Shown: positions 2 to 27,750 of the stretch, piece by piece
Layout of the letters: each line of letters begins with the position of its first letter
Numbering within the stretch: position 1 is the first letter of the stretch
Assembly (NCBI RefSeq): GCF_013315695.1
Contig: NZ_CP054353.1
Strand: one strand, 5' to 3'
Source of the DNA: Escherichia coli
GTDB lineage: Bacteria; Pseudomonadota; Gammaproteobacteria; Enterobacterales; Enterobacteriaceae
Length of the DNA stretch: 64,000 nucleotides
Notes under the pieces: model-generated
Seen by the model: only the letters and a program-made list of their open reading frames with translations
What the model was told of the DNA's origin: nothing
The model's database searches: none
Made by a program: the position numbers and the translations under genes

Positions 2-2362
2 GAGAAAGGCAGCGCTACGGGGATACAGCAGAGTAGCCAGGGCGCGTTGGTGGCAACCACCAGGGCGACGCGGGTCACAGGGACACGCGCTGATGGCGTC
101 GCGTTCAGCATCGAGCAGGATGCGGCGAACAATATCCTGCTGGCAAATGGCGGCGTGTTAACCGTGGAGTCAGACACCACTTCCGCCAAAACACAGGTCA
201 ATGCGGGCGGACGGGAGATCGTCAAAACAAAAGCCACTGCGACTGGCACGATGCTTACCGGCGGTGAACAAATCGTCGAGGGTGTGGCGAATGAGACAAC
301 GATTAACGACGGCGGAATACAAACAGTTTCGGCTAACGGTGAGGCAGTAAAAAAAACGATTAATGAAGGCGGTACGCTGACAGTCAACGATAATGGCAAA
401 GCGACAGATATCATCCAGAACAGCGGTGCCGCTCTCCAGACGAGCACGGCTAACGGTATTGAAATCAGCGGTACTCACCAGTACGGCACCTTTTCCATTG
501 CCGGCAATTTAGCGACCAATATGTTGCTGGAAAATGGCGGTAATTTATTGGTATTAGCAGGTACCGAAGCCCGTGACTCCAAGGTTGGCAAGGGTGGTGC
601 AATGCAAAACCTGGGTCAGGACTCCGCCACAAAGGTTAACTCTGGCGGGCAATATACCCTTGGGCGGTCAAAAGATGAGTTTCAGGCTCTGGCCCGGGCA
701 GAAGATCTCCAGGTCGCTGGCGGGACGGCAATCGTCTATGCAGGTACGCTGGCGGATGCATCGGTCAGTGGCGCGACAGGAAGCCTGTCGTTAATGACGC
801 CACGGGATAATGTTACGCCAGTTAAACTCGAAGGGGCGATCCGGATTACCGATAGCGCGACATTAACTATCGGAAATGGCGTCGATACGACGCTTACCGA
901 CCTGACGGCTGCCAGCCGGGGCAGTGTCTGGCTTAACAGCAATAATTCCTGTGCAGGTACCAGCAACTGCGAATATAGAGTAAACAGTTTGCTCCTCAAC
1001 GACGGTGATGTTTATTTATCAGCACAAACAGCAGCGCCTGCCACAACTAACGGTATCTACAATACGCTGACAACCAGTGAACTTTCCGGCAGCGGTAATT
1101 TCTACCTGCATACCAACGTTGCAGGCTCCCGGGGCGATCAACTGGTCGTCAACAACAACGCCACTGGTAATTTTAAAATCTTTGTTCAGGATACCGGCGT
1201 CAGCCCTCAGTCTGACGACGCGATGACGCTGGTGAAAACAGGGGGAGGGGATGCTTCGTTTACGCTGGGTAATACCGGCGGTTTCGTTGATCTTGGGACC
1301 TATGAGTATGTCCTGAAAAGCGACGGCAACAGCAACTGGAACCTGACCAATGATGTCAAACCCAACCCGGACCCCAACCCAAATCCGAAGCCGGATCCGA
1401 AACCAGACCCGACTCCCGATCCAACGCCGACACCCGTCCCGGAGAAACGCATCACGCCTTCTACGGCAGCCGTACTCAATATGGCAGCAACATTACCGTT
1501 GGTCTTTGATGCTGAGCTAAACAGTATTCGCGAGCGGTTGAACATAATGAAAGCGAGTCCACACAACAATAATGTCTGGGGGACGACGTATAACACCCGT
1601 AATAATGTCACCACCGATGCGGGTGCCGGGTTTGAGCAGACGCTGACCGGAATGACGGTGGGGATCGATAGCCGTAATGATATTCCTGAGGGGATTGCGA
1701 CTCTGGGCGCTTTTATGGGTTATTCCCATTCACATATCGGTTTTGATCGTGGAGGACATGGCAGTGTGGGCAGTTATTCTCTGGGGGGCTATGCCAGCTG
1801 GGAACATGAAAGTGGTTTCTATCTGGACGGTATCGTGAAGCTGAACCGCTTTGAAAGTAACGTAGCCGGTAAAATGAGCAGCGGTGGAGCCGCCAACGGC
1901 AGTTATCGCAGCAACGGGCTGGGCGGTCACATTGAAACCGGGATGCGATTTACCGATGGTAACTGGAACCTGACGCCGTATGCATCGTTAACGGGGTTCA
2001 CCGCTGATAACCCCGAATATCATTTATCCAATGGCATGGAATCGAAATCAGTCGATACCCGCAGTATATATCGTGAACTGGGCGCAACGCTGAGTTACAA
2101 CATGCGTCTGGGGAACGGCATGGAAGTTGAGCCGTGGCTGAAGGCGGCTGTGCGCAAAGAATTTGTCGATGATAACCGGGTGAAAGTGAATAATGACGGT
2201 AATTTTGTCAATGATTTGTCGGGCAGACGTGGAATATACCAGGCAGGTATTAAAGCCTCATTCAGCAGTTCGTTAAGCGGGAATCTCGGGGTGGGGTATA
2301 GCCATGGTGCCGGTGTGGAATCCCCGTGGAACGCAGTGGCTGGTGTGAACTGGTCGTTCTGA
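2..2362 (+). CDS. Autotransporter adhesin, C-terminal portion (passenger repeats, Pro/Asp/Asn-rich linker, beta-barrel translocator); 5' end lies outside the window
   Basis: Frame is open from the window edge (no stop between 2 and 47); PNPDPNPNPKPDPKPDPTPDPTPTP linker; C-terminal beta-domain ending ...VNWSF as in type Va autotransporters; position resembles ypjA next to CP4-57 in E. coli K-12. Confidence 0.8.
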   Translation, partial: EKGSATGIQQSSQGALVATTRATRVTGTRADGVAFSIEQDAANNILLANGGVLTVESDTTSAKTQVNAGGREIVKTKATATGTMLTGGEQIVEGVANETTINDGGIQTVSANGEAVKKTINEGGTLTVNDNGKATDIIQNSGAALQTSTANGIEISGTHQYGTFSIAGNLATNMLLENGGNLLVLAGTEARDSKVGKGGAMQNLGQDSATKVNSGGQYTLGRSKDEFQALARAEDLQVAGGTAIVYAGTLADASVSGATGSLSLMTPRDNVTPVKLEGAIRITDSATLTIGNGVDTTLTDLTAASRGSVWLNSNNSCAGTSNCEYRVNSLLLNDGDVYLSAQTAAPATTNGIYNTLTTSELSGSGNFYLHTNVAGSRGDQLVVNNNATGNFKIFVQDTGVSPQSDDAMTLVKTGGGDASFTLGNTGGFVDLGTYEYVLKSDGNSNWNLTNDVKPNPDPNPNPKPDPKPDPTPDPTPTPVPEKRITPSTAAVLNMAATLPLVFDAELNSIRERLNIMKASPHNNNVWGTTYNTRNNVTTDAGAGFEQTLTGMTVGIDSRNDIPEGIATLGAFMGYSHSHIGFDRGGHGSVGSYSLGGYASWEHESGFYLDGIVKLNRFESNVAGKMSSGGAANGSYRSNGLGGHIETGMRFTDGNWNLTPYASLTGFTADNPEYHLSNGMESKSVDTRSIYRELGATLSYNMRLGNGMEVEPWLKAAVRKEFVDDNRVKVNNDGNFVNDLSGRRGIYQAGIKASFSSSLSGNLGVGYSHGAGVESPWNAVAGVNWSF

Positions 2363-2375
2363 CCATCAACGAAAA

Positions 2376-2397
2376 AGCCCACATCTGTGGGCTTTCA
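2376..2397 (+). terminator. Putative hairpin terminator after the autotransporter gene
   Basis: agcccacatctgtgggct stem-loop followed by a short T-run, 14 bp after the stop codon. Confidence 0.4.
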
Positions 2398-2671
2398 TAT
2401 CACCAGGAGCCGCGGCTCCTTTGCGTATCCTTTTTTGTCTCCTCACCGTCTGGTCGGTGTCCTGCTGAGACTGCTAACTTCCTGTTTTTATTGGTGTTGT
2501 CCTTACACCGTCCAATCATGATTGGCTGGCGGAGTTTGAATAAATATTGTATTACTTTGATTTTTAATGATTTTGTTTGATTCAGTTTTTGTGCGTATAC
2601 CTAATCGTATACCAATGGCTGTAAGTTAATGTGAAATGAAAGCGCATTTTTACTTGGATTGATGCTATATC

Positions 2672-2990
2672 GTACAGGAAAAAAATTTTTTTTCGAAAGA
2701 ACTGTTCACACTGTTCACCTTTCTTTTTTCTCCTTTTATTTCATAGTGATAGGTGGTGAATAATGGGTGAAGGGTGAACATTCGATTCTTCACCTCCGGC
2801 ATTCTGCCGGTGTGACTTGTGCAGGGGATTAATTTCCCGTGCTGAAATCACACCGGAAGAAAAAAGTTTTTTTTGATTTGATTGTTCACACTGTTCACCT
2901 TTCGTTTTTCTCTTTTAATTTCAGTGTGATAACGGGTGAATATACGGTGAAGGGTGAACAGTGGATTGTTCACCTTCGGGGGATTCAGGG
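2672..2990. repeat. crr-like region: two ~120-bp direct repeats each carrying several TGTTCACC/GGTGAACA octamer iterons
   Basis: Units at about 2701-2810 and 2881-2990 are near-identical (ctgttcacactgttcaccttt...ggtgaa...gggtgaaca...ttcacc), each preceded by an A/T-run; sits just downstream of the alpha gene as P4 crr does. Confidence 0.75.
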
Positions 2991-2995
2991 ATAAA

Positions 2996-3024
2996 AAAAG
3001 ACCGGCAGATGCCGGTCAGATGAG
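2996..3024 (-). terminator. Rho-independent terminator downstream of the alpha gene
   Basis: gaccggca/tgccggtc hairpin followed by a T-run on the minus strand, immediately after the alpha stop. Confidence 0.5.
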
Positions 3025-3033
3025 TCATGATGG

Positions 3034-5367
3034 TCAGGTTGTTGCAGGGTCGTCACATTTTGGCAGCCAGTCGCCGTAGCTTTCCTCTTTCAGCGTCAGG
3101 TTGGTCTGTATCCCCTGTTTGGTATGGCGCTTCTCGTAATTCAGTCCGTATTCCTTCAGCATCACCGGCAGCCCCAGCCCGAACATTTTCAGACTGAGTA
3201 CATTCCGGTAGCCGTTTGCCTCCATGTAGGCCAGATAGGCGTGATAGAGGTATTTACGGTAATTACGCGGGATGATACTGGCGTTCCCCATATACATGCC
3301 GCTGGTCTGCAGCAGGGTTTCCAGATAGCCGATAAAATCAAACGTCGGGTCGGCATCCCGTTTGATGTTCAGTGCCTCGTCTGAGTTCTGCTGGGACTGA
3401 AGCAGTGACCGGGCGAGCATCGGGTCGCTGAACTTCTGCATCAGGTGACGCACGATGACCGCCAGCTCGCGGGTGATTTTGTCCTTAAGCTGCGGGTCGC
3501 GCTCCTGCGGGGCTATCTGTTCCGGGAAGTGAATAATCACCCGCCGGCGTGACACGCCGCCGCTGCGGTCGGTGAAGCGCATCGGGTTATTGTTCACGGC
3601 CAGAATCACCGCCGGGATGTGCGTGGAGTACGCATCCCGGTATTTCGGGTCAACGGACACTGCATCGCCGCCGGTGATGGCCTTGAGTCCGGCTCCGTCG
3701 CCGCTCCATTTTTCCTGGTCCGGCAGGCGTATCAGTGAGAAGCCAGTTAACGCGGCACGTTCACGCGGGGATTCCAGCGTCTCGATGGTGGCCGACGTGG
3801 CGTTATCCTCACCGGCCAGCAGGGTGGCGATTTCGGCCATGATACTTTTGCCGCTGCCGCCGGGACCGGTCACCTCCAGAAAGAGCTGCCAGTCGTAGCG
3901 GTTTGCCAGCACCATAAACAGTGCGGCCAGAATCACGTCGCGTTTTTCCGCACGGCCACCGGCGGCACGGTCAAGCCAGCGCCAGAACGCGGGGGCGTGG
4001 GTCTCCAGCGTTTCACCGTCCACCGGCGGGGTGAAATCCACATCGCACAGGGTGCGCATCCAGTGTGACGGACTGTGCGGATGGAACGTGCCGTTCTGCG
4101 TGTCGAGCACGCCGTTACGAAAGCCAATCAGGCGGCGGGAGGGGGCTTCCTGCTGCGGAATAATCAGTTTCAGGGTGTCCACCACGGAGGCCACCTTCCC
4201 GGAGGAGAACGGCGCGCGCAGACGCTGAAACAGCCCGGCCACATCCCGGGCAAAGTCCTGTGGCGGCAGCACCTTCCAGACACCATTTTCATAGCGGGAC
4301 AGAAGCTGGCCGTTGGCATCGACCGCGAGCGCCTCGCCGTAATGCTCATAGATACGCATGGCCTTTTCGCTGGTACTCATGGCGGAAAACTCTGCTTCGC
4401 TCATGGTGTCGAACGGGCTTTCAGCCGGTGGCCGGATGGCATCGTAAATGGCCTTACGGGTGGCCTCCCCGCCGTACTGCGTGAAGGCATCATTCCAGTC
4501 ACCGAAGACCGGCGGCAGGGCAACAACGCCCTCACACGCATCTGCGGCTGCGGCGGCTTTTTTCTGGCCGTCACCGCTGAGGTCACGGTCTGCGGCAAGG
4601 ACAATCTGACAGGCCGGATGCTTCTGCCGGGCAAGGCTGGCCAGAGAAAGGAGGTTCACGGAAGAAAGCGCCACCATCACCGTTTCACCGGTCAGGTGAT
4701 GCACGGTAAGTGCGGTCGCGTATCCCTCCGCTATCCACAGACGTTTTCCGGCCTGATTCTGTCCTTCAAGGGTGTGACAGGTGCCCCTGACCTGTCCGCC
4801 TTTCAGGGTGCGCTTACGGCCGTCAGCACTGATTAACTGAAGGTTAACCAGTTCGCCGCTGTCGTCATACAGTGGCACCACAAGGTCACCGGCGCGCCAG
4901 CTCACGCCACCGGCTCTGTGTGTGCCGGTCAGCATCCGGCATTCCCGGCCGGGAAAGCCCTTGCGGGTCAGGTAGGCGTTACCGGTTCCGGGACGGGTTT
5001 TTGCCATCAGGGTTTGTGCCAGTGCGGCGGCGTTCTTCCGGGCAGCGTCTGTTTCAGCAACGGCGGCGGCCGTCACTGCCGGGTCAGCCGGGGGCAGGCT
5101 GCCGGTCACGGCAGCCACCTTTGCGGCCGCGTCGGACGGAGAGACACCAAACACCTTTCCAACCAGTTTCAGGCCGTCACCGGCACCACACTGATTGCAG
5201 TACCAGGTGCCGCGCCCCTCCCTGTCATCAAAACGGAAGCGGTCACTCCCGCCACAGACCGGACAGGGCTGATGACGGTTTTTCAGCACCTGAATCCCCA
5301 GCGCCGGGAGAATACGCGGCCAGTGGCCGAGCGCATGGCTGACGGTGGCGGTTACGTTCATTTTCAT
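3034..5367 (-). CDS. P4 alpha-type bifunctional primase/helicase (777 aa)
   Basis: N-terminal zinc-binding motif CPVCGG...YCNQCG, central primase region, C-terminal P-loop helicase (GPGGSGKS); size and position match P4 alpha. Confidence 0.9.
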   Translation of the reverse strand: MKMNVTATVSHALGHWPRILPALGIQVLKNRHQPCPVCGGSDRFRFDDREGRGTWYCNQCGAGDGLKLVGKVFGVSPSDAAAKVAAVTGSLPPADPAVTAAAVAETDAARKNAAALAQTLMAKTRPGTGNAYLTRKGFPGRECRMLTGTHRAGGVSWRAGDLVVPLYDDSGELVNLQLISADGRKRTLKGGQVRGTCHTLEGQNQAGKRLWIAEGYATALTVHHLTGETVMVALSSVNLLSLASLARQKHPACQIVLAADRDLSGDGQKKAAAAADACEGVVALPPVFGDWNDAFTQYGGEATRKAIYDAIRPPAESPFDTMSEAEFSAMSTSEKAMRIYEHYGEALAVDANGQLLSRYENGVWKVLPPQDFARDVAGLFQRLRAPFSSGKVASVVDTLKLIIPQQEAPSRRLIGFRNGVLDTQNGTFHPHSPSHWMRTLCDVDFTPPVDGETLETHAPAFWRWLDRAAGGRAEKRDVILAALFMVLANRYDWQLFLEVTGPGGSGKSIMAEIATLLAGEDNATSATIETLESPRERAALTGFSLIRLPDQEKWSGDGAGLKAITGGDAVSVDPKYRDAYSTHIPAVILAVNNNPMRFTDRSGGVSRRRVIIHFPEQIAPQERDPQLKDKITRELAVIVRHLMQKFSDPMLARSLLQSQQNSDEALNIKRDADPTFDFIGYLETLLQTSGMYMGNASIIPRNYRKYLYHAYLAYMEANGYRNVLSLKMFGLGLPVMLKEYGLNYEKRHTKQGIQTNLTLKEESYGDWLPKCDDPATT

Positions 5368-14254: not shown

Positions 14255-15271
14255 TTAAATTAAGTTATAAAGAGGGTTTTTTGTTACTGCATCCTCCAGG
14301 TGGTCTGGAGAGAAGTGTGCATAAATCATCGTCATTTTAATATCTGAGTGCCCTAAAATATCACGTAAAACGAGTATGTTCCCACCGTTCATCATAAAAT
14401 GGCTGGCAAATGTATGGCGCAGGACGTGGGTGCATTGGCCTTCCGGTAGTTCAATACCGGCCCGTTTTACCGCCCGTTCAAAGGCTTTTCTGCATGGTGT
14501 GAATAATTTCCCTCGGTTTTTGGGTAGCTCGTTGTACAGATCCTGAGATATCGGTACGGTACGGTTTTTTTTACCCTTGGTCTTTGTATAGGTAATCCGG
14601 TATTTCGATAGTTGATGGCCCTGCAGGTTTTCAGCTTCACTCCAACGAGCACCGGTTGCTAGGCATATTTTTGCAATCATTAGCAGACTGGGGCTTTGAG
14701 AATCAGCACAGGCATCCAGCAGACGTTTAATTTCCTCCGGGGTTAGGAACGCCAGTTCACCCTCCGTAATTTTAAATGTTGGAAGCCCGGCAAGCGGGTT
14801 GGGGGCTGACCAGTGGCCCAGCTTTTTCAGTGTACCAAAAACAGATGATAGGTTGCGCTGTTCAAGGTTTACCGTGCGGGGCTTAACGGGTGACATGAAC
14901 GAGCCGTCTTCATTTTGGACCTCCCCCTTTAATCTGGCTTCCCGATATTTTGTGAAATCACCTGCTGTCAGCTCAGAGGCGATGGGATCGCCTAGACCAT
15001 TACAGATAATTCTAAGTTTCGCCATCAGGCGTTTGGGGTCTGCGAGTGTTTGACCATATAGGGAATACCACTGCTCAATCACTTCTGATAATCGCCGCCG
15101 ATCTTCCTTCTCACCAAGCCATGGCTTTTTGTTTACTTCGTTCATGGTGAAGTTTTCGAATGCTATGGCTTCGCCTTTCGTGGCAAATTGCTTACGCACG
15201 CGCTTGCCATTGCGTCCATTGGGATAGCACTCACACAACCATTTTCCGTTCGGCTGTTTTCTGATGGTCAT
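14255..15271 (-). CDS. int: P2-type tyrosine integrase (338 aa)
   Basis: Catalytic region motifs (...ARWSE...HVLRHTFASHF...LGHSDIKMTMIYAH); position next to att and repressor. Confidence 0.9.
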   Translation of the reverse strand: MTIRKQPNGKWLCECYPNGRNGKRVRKQFATKGEAIAFENFTMNEVNKKPWLGEKEDRRRLSEVIEQWYSLYGQTLADPKRLMAKLRIICNGLGDPIASELTAGDFTKYREARLKGEVQNEDGSFMSPVKPRTVNLEQRNLSSVFGTLKKLGHWSAPNPLAGLPTFKITEGELAFLTPEEIKRLLDACADSQSPSLLMIAKICLATGARWSEAENLQGHQLSKYRITYTKTKGKKNRTVPISQDLYNELPKNRGKLFTPCRKAFERAVKRAGIELPEGQCTHVLRHTFASHFMMNGGNILVLRDILGHSDIKMTMIYAHFSPDHLEDAVTKNPLYNLI

Positions 15272-15272
15272 A

Positions 15273-15905
15273 TCAAAGGCTCTTAATGATTTTCAGTGCA
15301 CGGCCTACTACCTCAATGTCATCCAGGCCACACTCAAACGATGAATCATCCTGATGCACTACTAATCTGTTTCCCGGGAGTCGAGTCAATTTAACAATGC
15401 TTTTTATCCCGTCGATATCGACTAACCACATACCATTCACTGGTGGTGTTTGGTTGCGATCTATTAAATAAGAATCACCAGAAGTAGTCACCAGCAGTAG
15501 GTTGCTTGAGTCTGAGGGGAGTATGCTGCTATCAATGATTGCTTTTCCAGCATCGACCAATAAACCACCGTTGAGAGTCGCCTTGTCAATTTCAGGAGAT
15601 ACTAGTTCAGAAAGAGGTACAACCTTGCTGGAGTTCACGGAATTGATATTTTTTTTAGGTTCAATGTTTGGACCTGGCTCCCCCTGTCCGGTGGTTAGCC
15701 ACAGTAAAGAAACTCCTGTTTCCAAGGCGCACTGAATCACCCACTCTGCAGGAAAACTATCTCTTAAGTATCTGTTTGCCATGGTGCTTTTTGATGCGCC
15801 TAAGTGATCGCAAAGTTGCTGTCTGGACTTGAAATCATAGGCTGCCATTAGTCTATGGATAGCTTCTCTTCCCCCTGTATTCTCTCCAGCCTTTACCTGT
15901 ATCAT
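15273..15905 (-). CDS. CI-type immunity repressor (210 aa, HTH N-terminus)
   Basis: Divergent from the apl/cox-like gene, adjacent to int; size closer to phage 186 CI than P2 C. Confidence 0.7.
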   Translation of the reverse strand: MIQVKAGENTGGREAIHRLMAAYDFKSRQQLCDHLGASKSTMANRYLRDSFPAEWVIQCALETGVSLLWLTTGQGEPGPNIEPKKNINSVNSSKVVPLSELVSPEIDKATLNGGLLVDAGKAIIDSSILPSDSSNLLLVTTSGDSYLIDRNQTPPVNGMWLVDIDGIKSIVKLTRLPGNRLVVHQDDSSFECGLDDIEVVGRALKIIKSL

Positions 15906-18399: not shown

Positions 18400-19253
18400 G
18401 CACCATCCTGAAATGGGCAGGTAATAAAACTGCCATTATGTCCGAACTGAAAAAACATCTTCCTGCTGGCCCGCGACTGGTTGAACCTTTCGCGGGTTCC
18501 TGTGCTGTGATGATGGAGACGGATTACCCCAGCTATCTTGTTGCGGATATTAATCCTGATTTAATCAACCTCTATAAAAAGGTTGCTGCTGATTGTGAAT
18601 CGTTTATATCTCGCGCCAGAGTTTTATTTGAGATCGCAAACAGGGAGGTGGCTTATTACAACATAAGGCAGGAGTTTAATTACTCAACTGAAATTACTGA
18701 TTTCATGAAAGCGGTATATTTCCTGTATCTAAATCGTCACGGTTACCGTGGTTTATGTCGCTATAACAAGAGCGGGCATTTCAACATTCCCTACGGTAAT
18801 TATAAAAATCCGTATTTCCCTGAAAAAGAAATTCGCGCATTTGCAGAAAAAGCCCAGCGAGCAACGTTTATCTGCGCCAGCTTTGATGAAACGCTGGCGA
18901 TGTTGAAAGCGGGGGATGTGGTGTATTGCGATCCGCCGTATGACGGTACGTTTTCCGGCTATCACACTGACGGCTTCACTGAAGATGACCAGTATCACCT
19001 GGCATCTGTTCTTGAACATCGGTCATCAGAAGGACATCCGGTCATTGTTTCTAACAGTGACACATCCCTGATCCGTTCGCTGTATCGCAATTTTACTCAC
19101 CACTACATCAAGGCAAAACGCAGCATCGGTGTGGCAGCTGGCGAGGGTAAATCAGCAACAGAAATCATTGCTGTTTCCGGGCCGCGCTGCTGGGTGGGAT
19201 TTGATTATTCGCGTGGCGTGGATAGTTCTGCCGTGTACGGAGTACGTGCATGA
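18396..19253 (+). CDS. DNA adenine methyltransferase (Dam-like, 285 aa)
   Basis: N-terminal SAM-binding region (LKWAGNK...EPFAGS) and DPPY catalytic motif. Confidence 0.85.
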
Positions 19254-21664
19254 GTCATGCCGATATGAACAACTGCTGCGGCTTTAACGAAGCTGCCGCA
19301 TCGTTCTCATGGAACAGCCCGAAAAAGGCCATTAACCCTTATCTGGACCCGGCGGAAGTTGCGCCGGTTTCTACGCTTTCAAACCTGATCACTCTGTACG
19401 CTGCCGATAACGAGCAGGAACAGCTGCGCCGTGAGGCGCTGAGTGATCAGGTCTGGGAGCGTTATTTCTTTAATGAATCCCGTGATCCTGTCCAGCGCGA
19501 AATGGAGCAGGATAAGCTCATTAGTCGGGCAAAGCTGGCGCATGAGCAGCAGCGTTTTAACCCGGACATGGTCATTCTGGCAGACGTCAGCGCCCAGCCC
19601 TCCCATATCAGCAAGCCGCTGATGCAACGTATTGAATACTTCAGCAGCCTTGGCAGGCCAAAGGCTTATTCCCGCTATTTGCGTGAGACGATTAAGCCAT
19701 GTCTGGAACGGCTGGAGCATGTACGCGACAGTCAGCTATCCACATCTTTTCGCTTTATGGCAAGCCATGAAGGGCTGGACGGCCTGCTGATTCTGCCTGA
19801 AATGAGTCAGGATCAGGTGAAACGCCTGTCCACCCTTGTTGCTGCGCATATGAGCATGTGCCTTGATGCAGCTTGTGGCGATTTGTATGCCACCGATGAC
19901 GTTAAGCCAGAAGAAATCCGCAAGACATGGGAAAAGGTGGCAGCAGAAACCCTGCGACTGGATGTCATACCGCCTGCGTTTGAGCAACTCCGCCGGAAAA
20001 GAAACCGCCGTAAACCCGTGCCATATGAACTCATTCCGGGTTCGCTGGCGCGTATGTTGTGCGCCGATTGGTGGTACCGGAAATTATGGAAGATGCGTTG
20101 CGAATGGCGGGAAGAGCAGTTGCGTGCTGTTTGCCTGGTCAGCAAAAAAGCATCTCCCTATGTCAGCTATGAAGCCGTGATGCATAAACGTGAGCAGCGC
20201 CGTAAGTCGCTGGAGTTTTTCCGTTCTCATGAACTGGTGAACGAAGACGGCGACACGCTGGACATGGAGGATGTGGTAAACGCCAGCAGCAGCAACCCTG
20301 CGCATCGCCGCAATGAGATGATGGCCTGTGTTAAAGGTCTGGAGCTTATCGCGGAAATGCGCGGTGACTGCGCCGTTTTCTACACCATCACCTGTCCGTC
20401 ACGTTTCCATTCCACGCTAAATAACGGCAGGCCCAACCCGACCTGGACAAATACGACGGTAAGACAAAGCAGTGATTATCTGGTCGGCATGTTTGCTGCA
20501 TTTCGTAAGGCGATGCACAAAGCCGGATTGCGCTGGTATGGCGTGCGGGTGGCTGAGCCGCATCATGACGGTACAGTTCACTGGCACCTGTTGTGTTTTA
20601 TGCGCAAAAAAGATCGCCGCACCATTACTGCTTTGTTGCGTAAGTTTGCCATTCGTGAAGACCGCGAGGAGCTGGGTAATAACACGGGACCACGCTTTAA
20701 GTCTGAGCTGATAAACCCGCGCAAAGGTACGCCAACAAGCTACATCGCGAAATACATCAGTAAGAACATTGACGGGCGTGGTCTGGCTGGCGAGATCAGC
20801 AAGGAAACGGGTAAATCCCTGCGTGATAACGCTGAATACGTTAATGCCTGGGCGTCTCTGCATCGTGTTCAGCAATTCCGCTTCTTTGGCATTCCGGGGC
20901 GTCAGGCTTACCGTGAACTGCGATTGCTGGCTGGTCAGGCGGCAAGGCAACAGGGGGACAAAAAAGCAGGTGCGCCGGTACTGGATAACCCGCGCCTTGA
21001 TGCAATCCTGGCTGCTGCTGATGCTGGTTGTTTTGCCACCTACATCATGAAGCAGGGCGGCGTACTGGTTCCCCGCAAATATCACCTCATCAGAACTGCT
21101 TATGAAATCAACGAAGAACCGACCGCATATGGCGATCACGGTATTCGTATTTATGGCATCTGGTCACCCATTGCAGAGGGCAAGATCTGCACTCATGCGG
21201 TGAAGTGGAAAATGGTTCGTAAGGCCGTTGACGTTCAGGAGGCGGCAGCCGACCAGGGCGCTTGCGCCCCTTGGACTCGTGGCAATAACTGTCCCCTTGC
21301 TGAAAATTTGTACCAACAAGGGAAAGACAAATCAGCTGATGGAGATACCAGAACGGATATCACCCGCATGGATGACAAGGAGTTGCACGATTACCTGCAC
21401 AGTATGAGCAAAAAAGAGCGCCGGGAACTGGCAGCAAGGTTACGCCTGGTGAAACCGAAACGGCGTAAAGACTACAAACAGCGAATTACAGATCATCAGC
21501 GACAGCAGCTCGTGTATGAACTGAAGTCCAGGGGATTTGATGGCAGCGAGAAAGAGGTCGATTTACTGCTTCGCGGCGGCAGTATTCCGTCAGGAGCAGG
21601 CCTGCGTATCTTCTATCGGAACCAGCGTTTGCAGGAAGATGATAAGTGGCGAAACCTGTATTAA
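19250..21664 (+). CDS. Replication initiation protein A (rolling-circle nicking endonuclease), 804 aa
   Basis: Size and position of P2/186 gene A at the end of the early operon. Confidence 0.85.
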
Positions 21665-22519: not shown

Positions 22520-22735
22520 ATGTCAAGCATCGCCGCATTTAGCCTGGGTAACCCAGTTGAACGTCTGGCAAGGGTTCTTAAAGAGAACCAGGACAAACTC
22601 AATCTTAGTAAAGATGGTTTTGTGTCCGTAGACTTGTCTAACAAAAGAGCAATGGATGCCATCAAGGCACAGATGGATAAGCTTGAAGGCATCAAAACGA
22701 GCACTGTAAAAGAGAAAACTAATAGAACCAGATAA
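22520..22735 (+). CDS. Hypothetical small protein (71 aa), first gene of a two-gene cargo module
   Basis: Strong RBS (gggggag); stop overlaps the next start (ATAATGG). Confidence 0.5.
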   Translation: MSSIAAFSLGNPVERLARVLKENQDKLNLSKDGFVSVDLSNKRAMDAIKAQMDKLEGIKTSTVKEKTNRTR

Positions 22736-23577
22736 TGGCAACATTACTTTTAGCAGTGATTTTGGTTAGTGGTTTTATTTATGTAAACCTATCACTTTCA
22801 ACAAGATACCGATATAAGCGTTCCAACGGCTGGGACGCTTATTTTTTTGTGGCTGCCTGGGGTATCGTTTTTTTTCTCCTTGGCGGTTTTTTCACCTTTA
22901 TTTTGAACGTCAGCGGAGGGTTTCGTTGGCTGGCTAATGCCTTGAATCTAACACCTGACAGTTTTAACGGCATGTTGTCTTCATCGAAAGACAAACTTCA
23001 AAGAATAAATGAAATCAAACAGATAGCATGGGTTATGATTTCAATTGTCCTCGCTGCGATTTCAGGTTTTGGAAATAAGTTACGCACATCACGTGGAGAT
23101 CGTCGCTGGGATGCCTTAGCTAAAGCTGTGGGTAATAACGCTTTCGAATCATTACTCATGGAAGCGTCCGCAAGACAGTTTCCGATCATAGCAACTCTGT
23201 CGTCTCGCAAAATCTATGTTGGTCTTGTTACTTGTCCGGCGTTAGAAAACGGGCTTTCAGAACACCTTGAACTTCTCCCGATGTTAAGCGGATATAGGGA
23301 TAAAGATGATCTAACGATTAGTATCACGACTAACTATCACCAACATTATCTTGATAGTGGTGTGATAAGTGGAATGTCTCGGCTTAATATCGAAGATTTC
23401 CGTGTGCTCATACCAAAAGATGAGGTTGAAACAATTTCGTTTTTTGATACTGAGACATATAACAAATTTAAAGAAAATGAAGCCAGGGATAGAAAGAACT
23501 GTCGAAAGATTGGTAGTAAAAGTGCATCTTCGCGCAGCAAGCGTGCAGCAGATGCTGAGTCAAATGATCGTGCATGA
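22735..23577 (+). CDS. Hypothetical membrane protein (280 aa: ~3 N-terminal TM helices plus soluble C-terminal domain)
   Basis: Translationally coupled to the 71-aa ORF; hydrophobic N-terminus, charged C-terminus. Confidence 0.6.
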   Translation: MATLLLAVILVSGFIYVNLSLSTRYRYKRSNGWDAYFFVAAWGIVFFLLGGFFTFILNVSGGFRWLANALNLTPDSFNGMLSSSKDKLQRINEIKQIAWVMISIVLAAISGFGNKLRTSRGDRRWDALAKAVGNNAFESLLMEASARQFPIIATLSSRKIYVGLVTCPALENGLSEHLELLPMLSGYRDKDDLTISITTNYHQHYLDSGVISGMSRLNIEDFRVLIPKDEVETISFFDTETYNKFKENEARDRKNCRKIGSKSASSRSKRAADAESNDRA

Positions 23578-23694
23578 CTATGCTGCATGAGATCGCATGA
23601 TCGTTTGAGGATCGTTTTTGCTAAGGCCCGCCAGAACTGGCGGGCTTTTGCGTAGATCATGCACCTGCATGAAAACTACTACATAAAGCGGGCA

Positions 23695-23713
23695 GGCGTG
23701 GCGGGGATACGAG
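23695..23713. other. Putative cos site of the P2/186-like prophage
   Basis: ggcgtggcggggatacgag shares the GGCG(A/T)GGCGGGG core with the P4-like cos at 10022. Confidence 0.5.
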
Positions 23714-23903
23714 CGCGCGTTGGGATGATAATGTCCTTTCGAATGTAAGGCAGAGTATGTTATTTTTACTCTTGGTTGCTTTGTATAGTTCGATAAAATT
23801 ATTATATATTTAGTATGTGATATATTGATGTCGATGGTGACTGGTTGTGGATGAAGCTAAAAACAAAAAGGCATGATGCGATTTATTGAAGGAATGATGA
23901 TTA

Positions 23904-24320
23904 ATGATTGATGTCATTGGTAATAAATACGTTGTTGCTTTAATTTTTCCATTGTTGATGATTCTATGTGGGGCTTTTGTAAAAAAACTTGCCAGATCCT
24001 CTGGTTGGCAAAAGAGTGATTTTTACTTTGGGAATGAGTTGATATTATCGACAATTGGTGCATCATTGTTGAATTTATATGATTTGACTAAAACTGTTCA
24101 AACAGTAACCACGGTTAACCAAGTGGTTAATCAGTACATTGGAACTACTAGCTTTCTTGCCTTCTCTCTTTTTGTATTACTGGGGATCATGTCTTTTCAT
24201 CAAGATTGGGAAGGGCGAACAGGAAATCCAAAAGGTCAAATTTGGGTTTTATGTATTGGGTGTAATTTAGTCGGCATATTATTTTTTGCTTCCTTTGTTT
24301 TGTGGATTAAGGGTGTGTAA
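23904..24320 (+). CDS. Hypothetical small integral membrane protein (138 aa, ~4 TM helices)
   Basis: AT-rich; four hydrophobic segments; immediately followed by the TIR-like gene. Confidence 0.6.
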   Translation: MIDVIGNKYVVALIFPLLMILCGAFVKKLARSSGWQKSDFYFGNELILSTIGASLLNLYDLTKTVQTVTTVNQVVNQYIGTTSFLAFSLFVLLGIMSFHQDWEGRTGNPKGQIWVLCIGCNLVGILFFASFVLWIKGV

Positions 24321-24923
24321 ATGAAAAAAAATACTCTTTATATTATTTCAATTGCATTGGCTGTTGTTGGGTTTCTTATGGCTCTTATTCCACGGCTCCC
24401 ATATTTATTTCAAGGAGTTAATGATGAGATTATCATCTCCGTTATTGGATTATCTTTTGCCTATTCTGGCCTGAGTTTGATTGTGTTAATGAAATTAAGG
24501 GAAAGAAGACTAAAGGCCGTTAAAAAAGGAAAGCAAATATTTCTAATGTATCCCGTACAAGAAAAAGATAAGGCCCGTCAAATAACTTGTAAGCTTAATG
24601 AGTTAGGTTTTGATGTATGGTTTGATGAAAATAACATATTGCCCGGGCAGATTATTGAAAAGCAAATTAATCAGGCTATAGACAATAGCGCTGCGGCTAT
24701 ATTGCTTCTGTCTAATGAAGATATGGAGTCATATATAAGAAAGGAGGTAGAGGGCTTTCTCCGTAAAGCTACGGTAAAAGATGAAAACTATGTTCCTATA
24801 ATTCCTGTGATAATTGGTGATGCTGAATTGCCTGCGATGCTCAAAAACATCAAGTCTGTAAACTATGAGGATGAAAAATTAATTGATAAGCTCAATTTGT
24901 CATTGAAGTCCATTCTTGGTTGA
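24321..24923 (+). CDS. Membrane-anchored TIR-like domain protein (200 aa: 2 TM helices plus TIR-like domain)
   Basis: C-terminal region follows the TIR pattern: KQIFLMY...LNELGFDVWFDENNILPGQII...INQAIDNSAAAILLLSNEDMESYIRKEV...YVPIIPVII. Confidence 0.6.
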   Translation: MKKNTLYIISIALAVVGFLMALIPRLPYLFQGVNDEIIISVIGLSFAYSGLSLIVLMKLRERRLKAVKKGKQIFLMYPVQEKDKARQITCKLNELGFDVWFDENNILPGQIIEKQINQAIDNSAAAILLLSNEDMESYIRKEVEGFLRKATVKDENYVPIIPVIIGDAELPAMLKNIKSVNYEDEKLIDKLNLSLKSILG

Positions 24924-24955
24924 AATAAGGAGTCAGAATATCTGACTCCGTTTTT

Positions 24956-25987
24956 TCAAGTAAGCTGATAACTATCGAATGTTACTATTTCCTCATCTAG
25001 CCATATGTTTATTTCCTGTAATCTTTTTTGCAACGGTAATAACTCATTACGAACAAATACTTTACTAGCCTTCTCCACATCCCCAAACCCCCCAACATTA
25101 TTCGGCATAATCCCCATCATCTGTGGCGGAACGCGATGTGCTGCCATCATGTCATCCCGGCTCACGTTCTTGATATTTAGAAACTCATCCTTCGCCGCAA
25201 CTTCTGACAAAGGGATGATCTGAAGGCCGTCCTTTTTGCCGTTAGGCGAGTACATAAACAGGTTGCGGAAGTTACCCGGACCTTTGGCACTTTTCATTGC
25301 ATTGCGGAGGTTGTTCACGTCCTCCTGGTTCTGCGCAGCATCGGTCATGTACATGATGAAGCCTGCATGACTACCGTTAATGTAATACTTGCGGCGGAAC
25401 AGCGTGGCGGACTCATTGAGCAGGGCGGACGGAATGGCAGAAAGATAGCCGGGCAGGCCGTAGATCTCCTGGTTAATGTCCGGTTCCATCAGATGAAAAA
25501 TGCTGCCTTTCGTGAACTGATATGGCTGCGTGGTCATACCGTATTGCACAAACCAGTAGGTATCCAGGTCTAACCCGCGTCGGGTGTATTTTGCCAGGGC
25601 AGGTTCAAGGGCGATAACTTCACCGAAGCGGTTCGTGCGTTTCTCCAGGTAGGCGTTACCAAATACCAGATAGTCCTGCACAAAACGCGAAAAAGCCTGC
25701 TGGCTGAGCAGCGGGTGAGGGATGTAGGTGCTGGTCAGAATGTTGCACTTTACTGCAATCGGGGAACTATGATGAACGGCAGCGCGGAAGGTGCGCGCCA
25801 GTCCGTCAAAGCTGACGGGCGGCTCATACCAGCGGTCCATCTGTACGCATTCCACATAATCCAGCAGTTCTCGGCGGTCCAGAACAGGAACGGGATCGCC
25901 GAAGCTGAATGCTTCGGCTGTAGTTTGACTTTTAAGCTGGATCTGTTTCGTCGCCGCAGCGCGGTTCTTCTTACTCTTTCCCATCAA
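24956..25987 (-). CDS. Portal protein (P2 Q-like), 343 aa
   Basis: Size, orientation and pairing with the terminase ATPase gene as in P2 Q-P. Confidence 0.9.
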   Translation of the reverse strand: MMGKSKKNRAAATKQIQLKSQTTAEAFSFGDPVPVLDRRELLDYVECVQMDRWYEPPVSFDGLARTFRAAVHHSSPIAVKCNILTSTYIPHPLLSQQAFSRFVQDYLVFGNAYLEKRTNRFGEVIALEPALAKYTRRGLDLDTYWFVQYGMTTQPYQFTKGSIFHLMEPDINQEIYGLPGYLSAIPSALLNESATLFRRKYYINGSHAGFIMYMTDAAQNQEDVNNLRNAMKSAKGPGNFRNLFMYSPNGKKDGLQIIPLSEVAAKDEFLNIKNVSRDDMMAAHRVPPQMMGIMPNNVGGFGDVEKASKVFVRNELLPLQKRLQEINIWLDEEIVTFDSYQLT

Positions 25988-27750
25988 AAAATCTCCACAA
26001 TATTGCTGGTATTGGCGGATTCGCCCTGCAGCGGTTCGTTAAACAGTGCGTGCATCGTTGCCCAGGCCAGATCGGCGTGGCTGGCTTCTTCGCTGCGGCT
26101 GGCTTCATAGGTCGGGCGGTTGCCACTGGCGGTGGTGGCGCGACGGATTGCCATAAAGGACTGCGCTATGTCGGTGTGTCCGGCGTCAAACTCCAGACGG
26201 CGGTGGCTGATAATGTCGTAGGCCTTGAGTACCAGGGCGTTTTTAACGTTGGGGTTGTAGACAAACTCCCGGACGGCAGGAAAAAACGCTTTCACGTTCT
26301 CATAAACCCCGTGACCAACGCCGGTTGAGTCGATACCGATATAGGTCACGTTGTACTGTTCGGTCAGTTTTTTGATGGCGTCAGCCTGGGCGCGGAAGTC
26401 CATTCCGCGCCACTGGTGACGCTCAAGAATGCGGAACTTACCGCCCGGCACGGCTGGCGGCGCCACCACCACGCATCCGGCGCTGTCGCCGTTCTGCGTA
26501 CCTTTCGCCGGGTCATATCCGATCCACACTTCGCGCCAGCCAAACGGGCGCAGGGCCAGTGCATGAAAGTCGGTCCAGACTTCCCAACTGTCCACCATGC
26601 ACGCCTGCAGCTCGCTGAGTGGGAACACAGACGCGAGATCGTCCACGAACTCACACATCAGCAGGTTTTGGTATTCGTCCGGGCTGTACTCCATGCGCAA
26701 CTGGTCGAGGTCGAACAGGTTACAGCCGCCGCGCACCGCATCTTCCACAGTGACTATCTGGCGGTACTGCCCGTCTGCGCACAGCAGGCCGGGGGCCAGA
26801 TTGCTGTGGGACAGGTCGATGTCCACCTTATCGGCTTTGTTGCGCCCTCGGTTGAACAGCGCACCGGACCAGAACGGATAAGCACTGTGTGTCAGGCTGG
26901 ATGGCGTGGAAAAATAGGTTTGTCGCCATTTTTTGTGAATAGCCATACCGGAAGCCACTTTGCGCAGCTCCTGGAATTTCGGTATCCAGAAATATTCATC
27001 CAGATACAGGTTGCCGTGGTAACTCTGGGCCGTGCGGGCATTGGTGCCGAGGAAGTACAGCGTGGCCCCGTTAGGAAGCACCATCGGATCGCCTTTCAGC
27101 TCCACCTCCACTTCTTTGGCGAAGTCGATGATGTACTGCTTAAAGACGTGGGCCTGAGCCTTGCTGGCGGAAAGGAAAATCTGGTTACGCCCGGTTAGCA
27201 GGGCGTCAATCAGGGCTTCACGGGCAAAATAGAAGGTCGCGCCGATCTGGCGTGACTTCAGCAGGTTGCGGATGCGGTTGGTTTTTCCGGCTTCCCACCA
27301 GTGGCGCTGGTAGTTGAACATGGAGGAATGGAAAATTTCTTCCAGCTTCTCAATCTGTTCATCGGTGAAAACGTTCTTTTCCGGCTGACGGCGCGGGCCT
27401 TTGTTGCGGTTGGCGACGTTAGGGTTTAAGTCGGCTTCGTTGCCGCCATTGTTAAACTTGCCGATCCGCGCATGGCGCTCCGACTGGCGCGCCAGCAGGT
27501 CAATCTCTTTGAAATCTTTCCCTTCTTTGTGCTCCTTCATAATGAGCTGGCAGTAGCGTGCGGCGGTGGTGAGCTGCATCTGATCCAGCGGCCCATAGTC
27601 ACCCCACTTGTCGCGTTTTTTCCAGCTGTGAACGGTTGCAACTTTCTCGCCCAGCATTTCAGCAATGCGGGCTACGCGGTATCCCTGAAAGTACAGCAGC
27701 ATGGCCTGCCGACGGGGATCGAGATCTGCGGGTGTCAGTGTGGTGTTCAT
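25984..27750 (-). CDS. Terminase large (ATPase) subunit (P2 P-like), 588 aa
   Basis: Size and position match P2 gene P; overlaps the portal gene start. Confidence 0.9.
   Translation of the reverse strand: MNTTLTPADLDPRRQAMLLYFQGYRVARIAEMLGEKVATVHSWKKRDKWGDYGPLDQMQLTTAARYCQLIMKEHKEGKDFKEIDLLARQSERHARIGKFNNGGNEADLNPNVANRNKGPRRQPEKNVFTDEQIEKLEEIFHSSMFNYQRHWWEAGKTNRIRNLLKSRQIGATFYFAREALIDALLTGRNQIFLSASKAQAHVFKQYIIDFAKEVEVELKGDPMVLPNGATLYFLGTNARTAQSYHGNLYLDEYFWIPKFQELRKVASGMAIHKKWRQTYFSTPSSLTHSAYPFWSGALFNRGRNKADKVDIDLSHSNLAPGLLCADGQYRQIVTVEDAVRGGCNLFDLDQLRMEYSPDEYQNLLMCEFVDDLASVFPLSELQACMVDSWEVWTDFHALALRPFGWREVWIGYDPAKGTQNGDSAGCVVVAPPAVPGGKFRILERHQWRGMDFRAQADAIKKLTEQYNVTYIGIDSTGVGHGVYENVKAFFPAVREFVYNPNVKNALVLKAYDIISHRRLEFDAGHTDIAQSFMAIRRATTASGNRPTYEASRSEEASHADLAWATMHALFNEPLQGESANTSNIVEIF

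Follow-up and report, generated by a model that had tools for sequence, protein, structure and literature searches.

What is the function of two small, adjacent, AT-rich genes that lie between the cos region and the portal gene of a prophage in Escherichia coli? The DNA analysed here, called the window throughout, is a stretch of 64,000 nt from contig NZ_CP054353.1, which contains a P2/186-like prophage, and the two genes encode a protein of 138 amino acids (aa), hereafter the partner, and a protein of 200 aa with a Toll/interleukin-1 receptor (TIR) domain. An original prediction from the DNA letters had proposed two adjacent, co-oriented, AT-rich reading frames at this place, encoding a protein with about four transmembrane (TM) helices and a protein with two N-terminal TM helices followed by a C-terminal TIR domain; all of these features were recovered in the present analysis. 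The two genes most likely form an undescribed phage-defence module, whose anti-phage function we infer from the evidence set out below, and they are a good candidate for experimental validation.

The TIR protein and its membrane partner

The C-terminal part of the 200-aa protein (WP_000742490, labelled 'toll/interleukin-1 receptor domain-containing protein' in RefSeq) is a TIR domain by profile as well as by fold. In Pfam, residues 73-185 match TIR_2 (PF13676) with an E-value (E) of 4.8e-17, accompanied by matches to TIR (PF01582, E 1.5e-6) and CAP12-PCTIR_TIR (E 2.8e-4), and a profile search of the PDB sequences also retrieves TIR proteins. An AlphaFold2 model was built for partner and TIR protein as one fused chain, based on a block-diagonal alignment of 137 rows; in this model, the predicted local distance difference test (pLDDT) score of the TIR domain is 94-98. 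Comparison of the model with the PDB by Foldseek returned only TIR domains, the best match being the SPARTA TIR-APAZ protein (root-mean-square deviation 2.0 Å over 137 columns), with BtTir, AbTir, SARM1 and TIR-STING among the further top matches, and BtpA/TcpB-type bacterial TIRs as well as MyD88 TIR filaments also appearing among the structural matches. The protein therefore shows both marks of the TIR superfamily, a significant profile match and a flavodoxin-like alpha/beta fold. Judged by the predicted model, its nearest solved structures are NAD+-cleaving TIRs which are switched on by oligomerisation (NAD+, nicotinamide adenine dinucleotide).

The N-terminal part of the same protein is a membrane hairpin. 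Hydropathy marks hydrophobic helices at residues 5-23 and 37-55, which the AlphaFold2 model places at residues 173-198 and 203-237 of the fused chain with a pLDDT of 56-80. Since the adjoining juxtamembrane stretch K58-K71 is basic and contains eight Lys/Arg, the positive-inside rule places the TIR domain in the cytoplasm; this predicted compartment is also that of NAD+, which counts in favour of an NAD+-cleaving function. Within the domain, E142, which is part of the motif S-Y-I-R-K-E, takes the position of the Glu in the W-x-x-x-E motif when aligned to PdTIR (3h16) and BtTir (7uxr), and it conforms to the W/Y-x-x-x-E pattern of TIR NADases, in which the Glu sits in the helix after strand beta-C. 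This residue is invariant among the 5 close orthologues, and among 65 family members the column holds Glu in 55, Gln in 6, Ala in 2, Asp in 1 and Leu in 1. The protein is thus predicted to be a catalytically competent candidate NADase.

By hydropathy, the partner (WP_000567607, a 'hypothetical protein' in RefSeq) possesses four hydrophobic helices, three of them strong and one weaker, and the AlphaFold2 model shows four long helices (residues 8-31, 43-65, 71-103 and 109-135; pLDDT 85-93). Two conserved loops, W35-x-K-x-D39-F-x-x-G43-x-E45 and H99-Q-D-W-E103-x-R, are predicted to be cytoplasmic, and the protein ends with K136-G-V. In an alignment of 116 sequences, 43 of the 138 positions are conserved to at least 90%, including K27, K28, R31, W35, D39, E45, D60, H99-Q-D-W-E103, R105, Q112, N121 and K136-G. 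Within this otherwise very conserved protein, the loop of residues 61-78 is hypervariable and may represent a sensing surface under diversifying pressure.

A profile search yielded at least 168 clusters of partner homologues with 130-150 aa, none of which has a domain assignment and almost all of which are labelled 'hypothetical'; they originate from Citrobacter, Serratia, Klebsiella, Pantoea, Pseudomonas, Competibacteraceae, Deltaproteobacteria and many metagenomes. The partner itself has no match in Pfam, NCBIfam 2026 or PADLOC v2, and Pfam matches are likewise absent from all ten homologues that were searched. In the fold searches, all listed PDB and BFVD matches fall on the TIR protein or on TIR-type folds, and 49 of the 50 listed AFDB50 matches are of the TIR type, the exception being A0A1F9IWT4 (rank 10), a member of the partner's own family. 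On these searches, the partner family is new and unannotated. A few homologues carry labels from the Joint Genome Institute (JGI), namely 'phosphatidylglycerophosphate synthase' (P0162, P0185, P0232) or a subunit of NADH:ubiquinone oxidoreductase (P0262), which find no support in Pfam and probably are annotation artefacts. A 143-aa hypothetical membrane protein on plasmid 2 of Variovorax sp. SRS16 (L040:3992-4423) shares 27% identity with the partner (tblastn E 4e-4); its gene lies downstream of SecB-like and release-factor-like genes with no TIR gene annotated nearby, and it could be a chance match of TM segments or a remote relative that has another companion.

A conserved pair and its genomic surroundings

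Close homologues of the TIR protein are few, forming 5 clusters among 5.8 billion proteins, and an exhaustive search of a representative library of 1.84 billion proteins revealed a broad family of full-length relatives of about 200 aa with the same 2TM-TIR layout. In every context read, down to a TIR identity of 27%, the partner gene is found immediately upstream of the TIR gene: this holds for Enterobacter (79% TIR identity to the window protein), Klebsiella (64-65%), metagenomic contigs (53-55%), the contigs carrying P0008, P0009, P0010 and P0012 (34-40%) and those carrying P0026 (27%), for two P2-like contigs of IMG/VR, and for contexts in Pseudomonas and Deltaproteobacteria, which were found by searching from the partner side. 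The ratio of nonsynonymous to synonymous substitutions (dN/dS), calculated against orthologues with saturated synonymous sites, is 0.04-0.2 across both genes (0.04-0.18 for the partner), so that both are genuinely coding and under purifying selection. Across 66 pairs, the identities of partner and TIR protein are correlated (r = 0.89). Partner and TIR genes are one conserved, selected unit, and they belong to a broad operon family which is conserved across Proteobacteria and is no peculiarity of P2. It should also be noted that a scan of genome contigs with the TIR alignment returned only two cyanobacterial loci with a TIR gene alone, this pattern-based search being insensitive for the 2TM-TIR family, and that neither protein has a tblastn match among the INPHARED phages, though PHROGs contains near-identical families.

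Outside the window, the module is accompanied by genes of a defence type. On metagenomic contigs it is flanked by bSEFIR (1e-103; L018:1323-2759) or by an AbiU/AIPR protein (AbiU 1.4e-65; L024:224-1891), and because these genes stand directly beside the module, the hotspot stacks several defence genes. An integrase island of Pseudomonas holds the module beside Septu (PtuB 4.7e-91, an AAA_15/AAA_21 ATPase and a large helicase), and in a deltaproteobacterium it stands beside mad3 (7e-85) and HepT/MNT. An HNH gene also occurs among the neighbours, and integrases are among the adjoining genes. The genomic context points to defence.

These surroundings bear on the proposal that the pair serves a non-abortive prophage function, be it superinfection exclusion at the stage of DNA entry, the timing of lysis, or a role as Tcp-like virulence factor acting against Toll-like receptors (TLR). 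Small membrane proteins encoded by prophage morons often act in exclusion, the virulence TIRs BtpA/TcpB are among the structural matches, and the pair adjoins packaging genes. The operon, however, is also present outside phages, in the Pseudomonas and deltaproteobacterial islands and in environmental metagenomes, which argues against lysis control and animal virulence, and the TIR domain is predicted to be cytoplasmic and tethered to the membrane, without a secretion signal. We therefore regard a non-abortive function as very unlikely and return to the phage-defence module.

In the window, the partner and TIR genes are the only two between the cos block and the portal gene (Table 1). They abut at 24320/24321 with a TAA-ATG junction, and their GC content is about 0.34 versus about 0.55 in the flanking phage genes. 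The hairpin behind the TIR gene comprises 9 pairs with T-runs on both strands and looks like a bidirectional intrinsic terminator, closing the two-gene operon as well as the convergent portal gene. The block assigned to cos is kept in 1270 of 5426 complete E. coli genomes and also in P2-like phages, consistent with a cos region and in line with the position of about 23695 that had been proposed for the cos site; the DNA of the gene pair is found with 100% identity in only 2 of the 5426 genomes. The slot corresponds to the gpA-gpQ hotspot known from P2-like phages, which houses validated anti-phage systems (Rousset et al. 2022, PMC9122126), and the earlier assignment to a cos-proximal cargo slot is thereby confirmed.

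Table 1 Coordinates of the gene pair, its parts and the surrounding prophage features in the window
Feature	Position	Strand	Basis or remark
Integrase gene	14255-15271		prophage gene
CI repressor gene	15273-15905		prophage gene
Replication gene A (gpA)	19250-21664		prophage gene
cos-region block of P2/186-like phages	23600-23732	n/a	GGCGTGGCGGGG at ~23696; marks the cargo slot
AT-rich non-coding leader, cos to partner gene	23735-23903	+	sequence, composition; presumed promoter region
Partner gene, 138 aa	23904-24320	+	open reading frame (ORF); inner-membrane protein, four TM helices
Hypervariable partner loop, residues 61-78	24084-24137	+	predicted periplasmic, between helices 2 and 3
TIR protein gene, 200 aa	24321-24923	+	ORF; membrane-anchored TIR, Pfam TIR_2 match
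TM hairpin of TIR protein, residues 5-55	24333-24485	+	hydropathy, charge, AlphaFold2
Cytoplasmic TIR domain, residues 72-200	24534-24920	+	Pfam, pLDDT, Foldseek
GAG codon of E142, candidate catalytic Glu	24744-24746	+	alignment to PdTIR, BtTir
Hairpin, candidate bidirectional terminator	24929-24949	n/a	terminator scan
Portal gene	24956-25987	-	ORF
Terminase gene	25984-27750	-	ORF

In several E. coli genomes the prophage is present in decayed form: the portal or terminase gene is truncated, an insertion sequence (IS) has entered, or the tail genes are rearranged (L001, which is NZ_CP051001 of E. coli O157:H16 98-3133, as well as L008, L015, L016 and L017). The pair is intact and identical in these copies, as one would expect of a moron that benefits its host.

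On the gpA side of cos, the prophage carries another, overlapping pair of genes, encoding proteins of 71 aa (22520-22735, +; WP_000094764) and 280 aa (22735-23577, +; WP_000212611), the latter with three N-terminal TM helices. Both match PHROG families of unknown function (phrog_9843 and phrog_3630), and neither Pfam nor PADLOC matches were found for them. In Table S5A of Rousset et al., the two proteins accompany other cargo (PIN_12, DUF262/DUF1524, SieB); because they co-occur with such different cargo, they look like an independent accessory unit. They were considered as a component of the module and rejected, as they are missing from the loci of the module in Klebsiella, Enterobacter and elsewhere.

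Possible mechanisms of the pair

For the mode of action, we tentatively favour an abortive infection system at the membrane, an explanation which in our estimate comes near to an even chance without reaching it. The two genes would be expressed as one operon and their products would assemble into an inner-membrane complex, which protects the lysogen or another host from other phages. The TIR protein would be held in the membrane by its two-helix hairpin with the TIR domain in the cytoplasm, the four-helix partner lying alongside and holding or regulating it through its cytoplasmic loops (W-K-DF-G-E and HQDWE-R). Acting as sensor or regulator, the partner would perceive an infection by means of its hypervariable periplasmic loop and its membrane helices. 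The TIR domains would then gather, as they do in SPARTA, SARM1, AbTir and TIR-STING, a composite active site around E142 would be switched on, and NAD+ would be cleaved, so that the collapse of NAD+, probably together with a loss of membrane integrity, precedes the completion of the phage cycle.

Several observations weigh against this scheme. A first AlphaFold2 run of the fused chain, with an alignment of 5 rows, reached a pLDDT of 47, and the second gave good domains without interface information, which leaves complex formation without structural support. In the leader upstream of the partner gene, a consensus scan revealed no strong sigma-70 site, and no promoter has been identified for the putative operon. 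In all 66 comparisons the partner exceeds the TIR protein in conservation, with a mean identity of 50%, whereas the TIR domain reaches 38% and the TIR protein's hairpin 29%, and in Thoeris-like systems higher conservation marks the effector and not the sensor. Finally, about 9% of the family, including the module of Pseudomonas, have Gln at the catalytic column, and NAD+ cleavage therefore cannot be the output in those members; the NADase route may not be universal across the family. Such Gln variants are L033:6394-6993 (Pseudomonas), P0023, P0046 and P0083, with motifs as for example W-V-T-Q-Q-L, and they keep the partner gene. These natural Glu-to-Gln variants bear directly on the question whether NAD+ cleavage is needed at all.

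The conservation pattern leads to a reversed assignment of roles, in which the pair would work by signal and pore as in type II Thoeris or the AC1 system discussed below: the variable TIR protein would be the sensor, producing a messenger derived from ADP-ribose (ADPR) out of NAD+, and the conserved partner would be the effector, whose loops bind the messenger and whose four-helix bundle oligomerises to form a pore and depolarise the membrane. A conserved effector with a variable sensor fits the 66 comparisons, and the 43 strongly conserved positions of the partner include many charged loop residues. The same logic was proposed for the TIR and TM proteins of AC1 by Rousset et al. (PMC9122126), pairs of TIR and 2TM-SLATT proteins are encoded by Firmicute phages (PMC9503650), and BtTir and AbTir, which produce isomers of cyclic ADPR, are among the best structural matches. 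On the other hand, the partner lacks a recognisable nucleotide-binding domain (Macro, SLOG, SAVED or STING) and its soluble loops comprise only about 15 residues, a generator anchored in the same membrane as its effector makes a diffusible messenger unnecessary, and the Gln-variant members could not make the signal. We consider this reversal of roles the main rival explanation, though a rather unlikely one.

The Gln variants also direct attention to the possibility that assembly alone matters, the TIR domain serving for clustering or as a scaffold, in the manner of animal TLR/MyD88 signalling, with NAD+ cleavage accessory or absent. Assembly between TIR domains, triggered by infection, would then draw many complexes together, each with six TM helices (2 + 4), and disrupt the membrane directly. 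In 9 of the 65 relatives the catalytic Glu is replaced (by Gln, Ala or Leu) while partner and operon are kept, and the Pseudomonas example L033 is present on 11 contigs; the structural matches include MyD88 TIR filaments. Reports on SDIC1 (bioRxiv 10.1101/2024.01.28.577318) and on a type II Thoeris (bioRxiv 10.64898/2026.01.22.701046) describe TIR defence proteins that act by depolarisation or growth arrest and show no clear loss of NAD+. Against assembly as the sole function stand the window protein and 85% of its relatives, which retain the catalytic Glu with its surrounding motif, as well as the closest structures, which are enzymes; moreover, pore formation is not indicated by any data of this analysis. 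To us this explanation seems improbable, and infection-triggered NAD+ cleavage within a membrane complex stays the tentatively preferred one.

A more far-reaching and in our opinion unlikely idea is that the two proteins form a transmembrane TIR receptor complex of bacteria and thereby represent a prokaryotic equivalent of Toll-like receptors in layout. Detection of the phage from the periplasmic or membrane side would fall to the partner loop of residues 61-78 and to the loop of the TIR hairpin, with tail tip, DNA-ejection machinery, holins or envelope stress as candidate triggers, and a rearrangement of the helices would carry the signal across the membrane and cluster the cytoplasmic TIR domains. 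If true, this would disclose an unrecognised family of outside-in phage sensors, and the partner homologues would represent a novel class of membrane sensors or effectors across Proteobacteria. TIR domains are shared by innate immunity from bacteria to humans. The module itself would, if validated, add a compact defence system of 1 kb, define a new family of membrane proteins and provide a tractable model for the coupling of membrane events to TIR activation.

Relation to known TIR-based defence systems

The original prediction had not recognised the pairing as any named system, and this holds: the partner is without a match in the databases searched, and the matches of the TIR protein are partial and confined to its TIR domain. 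The absence of a cyclase, SIR2/SLOG or Macro partner, claimed at the same time, is borne out as well, since cyclase and Argonaute genes were not found in the window locus, nor SIR2, SLOG, Macro or caspase-like domains in the pair or its adjacent genes. Literature searches for the accessions, for TM-TIR proteins and for TIR systems of the P2 hotspot returned no description of the pair, and its N-terminal sequences do not occur in the searched portion of Table S5B of Rousset et al.

Thoeris, especially type II with its TIR protein ThsB and the 2TM-Macro protein ThsA, is similar in that a small operon encodes a TIR protein together with a membrane protein and the logic is of the abortive type. 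The window pair differs in having no ThsA and in carrying TM helices on the TIR protein itself. PADLOC models of ThsB match the TIR domain weakly and partially (E 1.6e-4 and weaker), and NCBIfam models of Thoeris and retron TIRs score 25-32 bits against cut-offs of 220-600 (ThcB4, 25.5 versus 220). With SPARTA TIR-APAZ, the TIR-STING and TIR-SAVED effectors of CBASS, PycTIR, SARM1 and AbTir, the window protein has in common that TIR is the sole enzymatic domain and that the catalytic Glu is aligned. SPARTA-, CBASS- and SARM1-type TIRs, however, depend for their activation on a soluble sensor, fused or bound (Ago/APAZ, STING, SAVED, ARM/SAM), and those of CBASS and Pycsar also on a cyclase gene, whereas the parts appended in the window pair are only a TM hairpin and a 4-TM partner. 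The SAVED_TIR and CAP12 matches cover the TIR part only, and the cyclase gene by which CBASS and Pycsar are recognised is absent from the window locus and from all related loci examined. Membership in Thoeris, CBASS, Pycsar, retron-TIR systems or SPARTA was therefore rejected, the matches remaining at the level of the TIR domain and the cognate partner genes being absent. SDIC1, from Serratia, is a TIR system distinct from the window pair.

RexAB of lambda and the pairs of TIR and 2TM-SLATT proteins in Firmicute phages share, as prophage-encoded exclusion modules, one feature with the window pair, the combination of a small polytopic membrane protein with a cytoplasmic component that senses or has enzymatic activity. 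RexB is a small membrane protein with four TM helices. The TIR-SLATT pairs were described by Aravind's group (PMC9503650). In Pfam, neither protein of the window matches SLATT_1-6 or RexB at E <= 10, nor do the ten partner homologues, and the resemblance is one of analogy only. PDC-S66, one of the two best PADLOC matches, has a TIR domain after an N-terminal region of about 140 aa and is matched by the window protein with E 5e-10 and by three distant relatives with 4e-12 to 2e-6. The match is limited to positions 145-240 of 282, i.e. to the TIR part, while the N-terminal 144 positions remain unmatched in the window protein and the three relatives alike; PDC-S66 is a single-gene, unvalidated candidate without a partner model.

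The closest validated precedent is the '2TM + 1TM + TIR' system of AC1, which had not been cited in the original prediction and occurs at the same hotspot. It is a three-gene system which was cloned from this hotspot of a P2-like phage and has experimentally shown anti-phage activity against lambda, LF82_P8 and P2 (PMC9122126). Like the window pair, it occupies the cos-proximal slot between gpA and gpQ and combines a TIR protein with small membrane proteins in the absence of a cyclase, SIR2 or Macro. It differs by having three genes instead of two, and by a soluble TIR protein of 315 aa with an N-terminal TIR and a helical C-terminal part, while the TIR domain of the window stands behind a TM hairpin. 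DefenseFinder lists this system as Rst_2TM_1TM_TIR. With the AC1 protein sequences taken from Table S2A of Rousset et al., BLASTP showed no similarity of the window proteins to the AC1 components (TIR, E 1.3; the partner gave either no alignment with the membrane proteins or E >= 0.15 over 9 residues). By hhalign, the two TIR proteins are related with 95.6% probability and 20% identity over the TIR domain only, the C-terminal 190 residues of the AC1 protein having no counterpart in the window protein, and the partner reaches a probability of 1.0% and 0.2% with the two AC1 TM proteins. Identity with the AC1 system was rejected accordingly, BLASTP and hhalign giving similarity at the level of the TIR superfamily only. 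Known bacterial TIR systems considered here employ a soluble TIR driven by a soluble sensor or a cyclase; in the window module, by comparison, the TIR domain is tethered to the inner membrane and coupled to a strongly conserved membrane protein, and the pair is best classed as an unvalidated variant of TIR-based, membrane-associated defence in phage hotspots with a new partner family.

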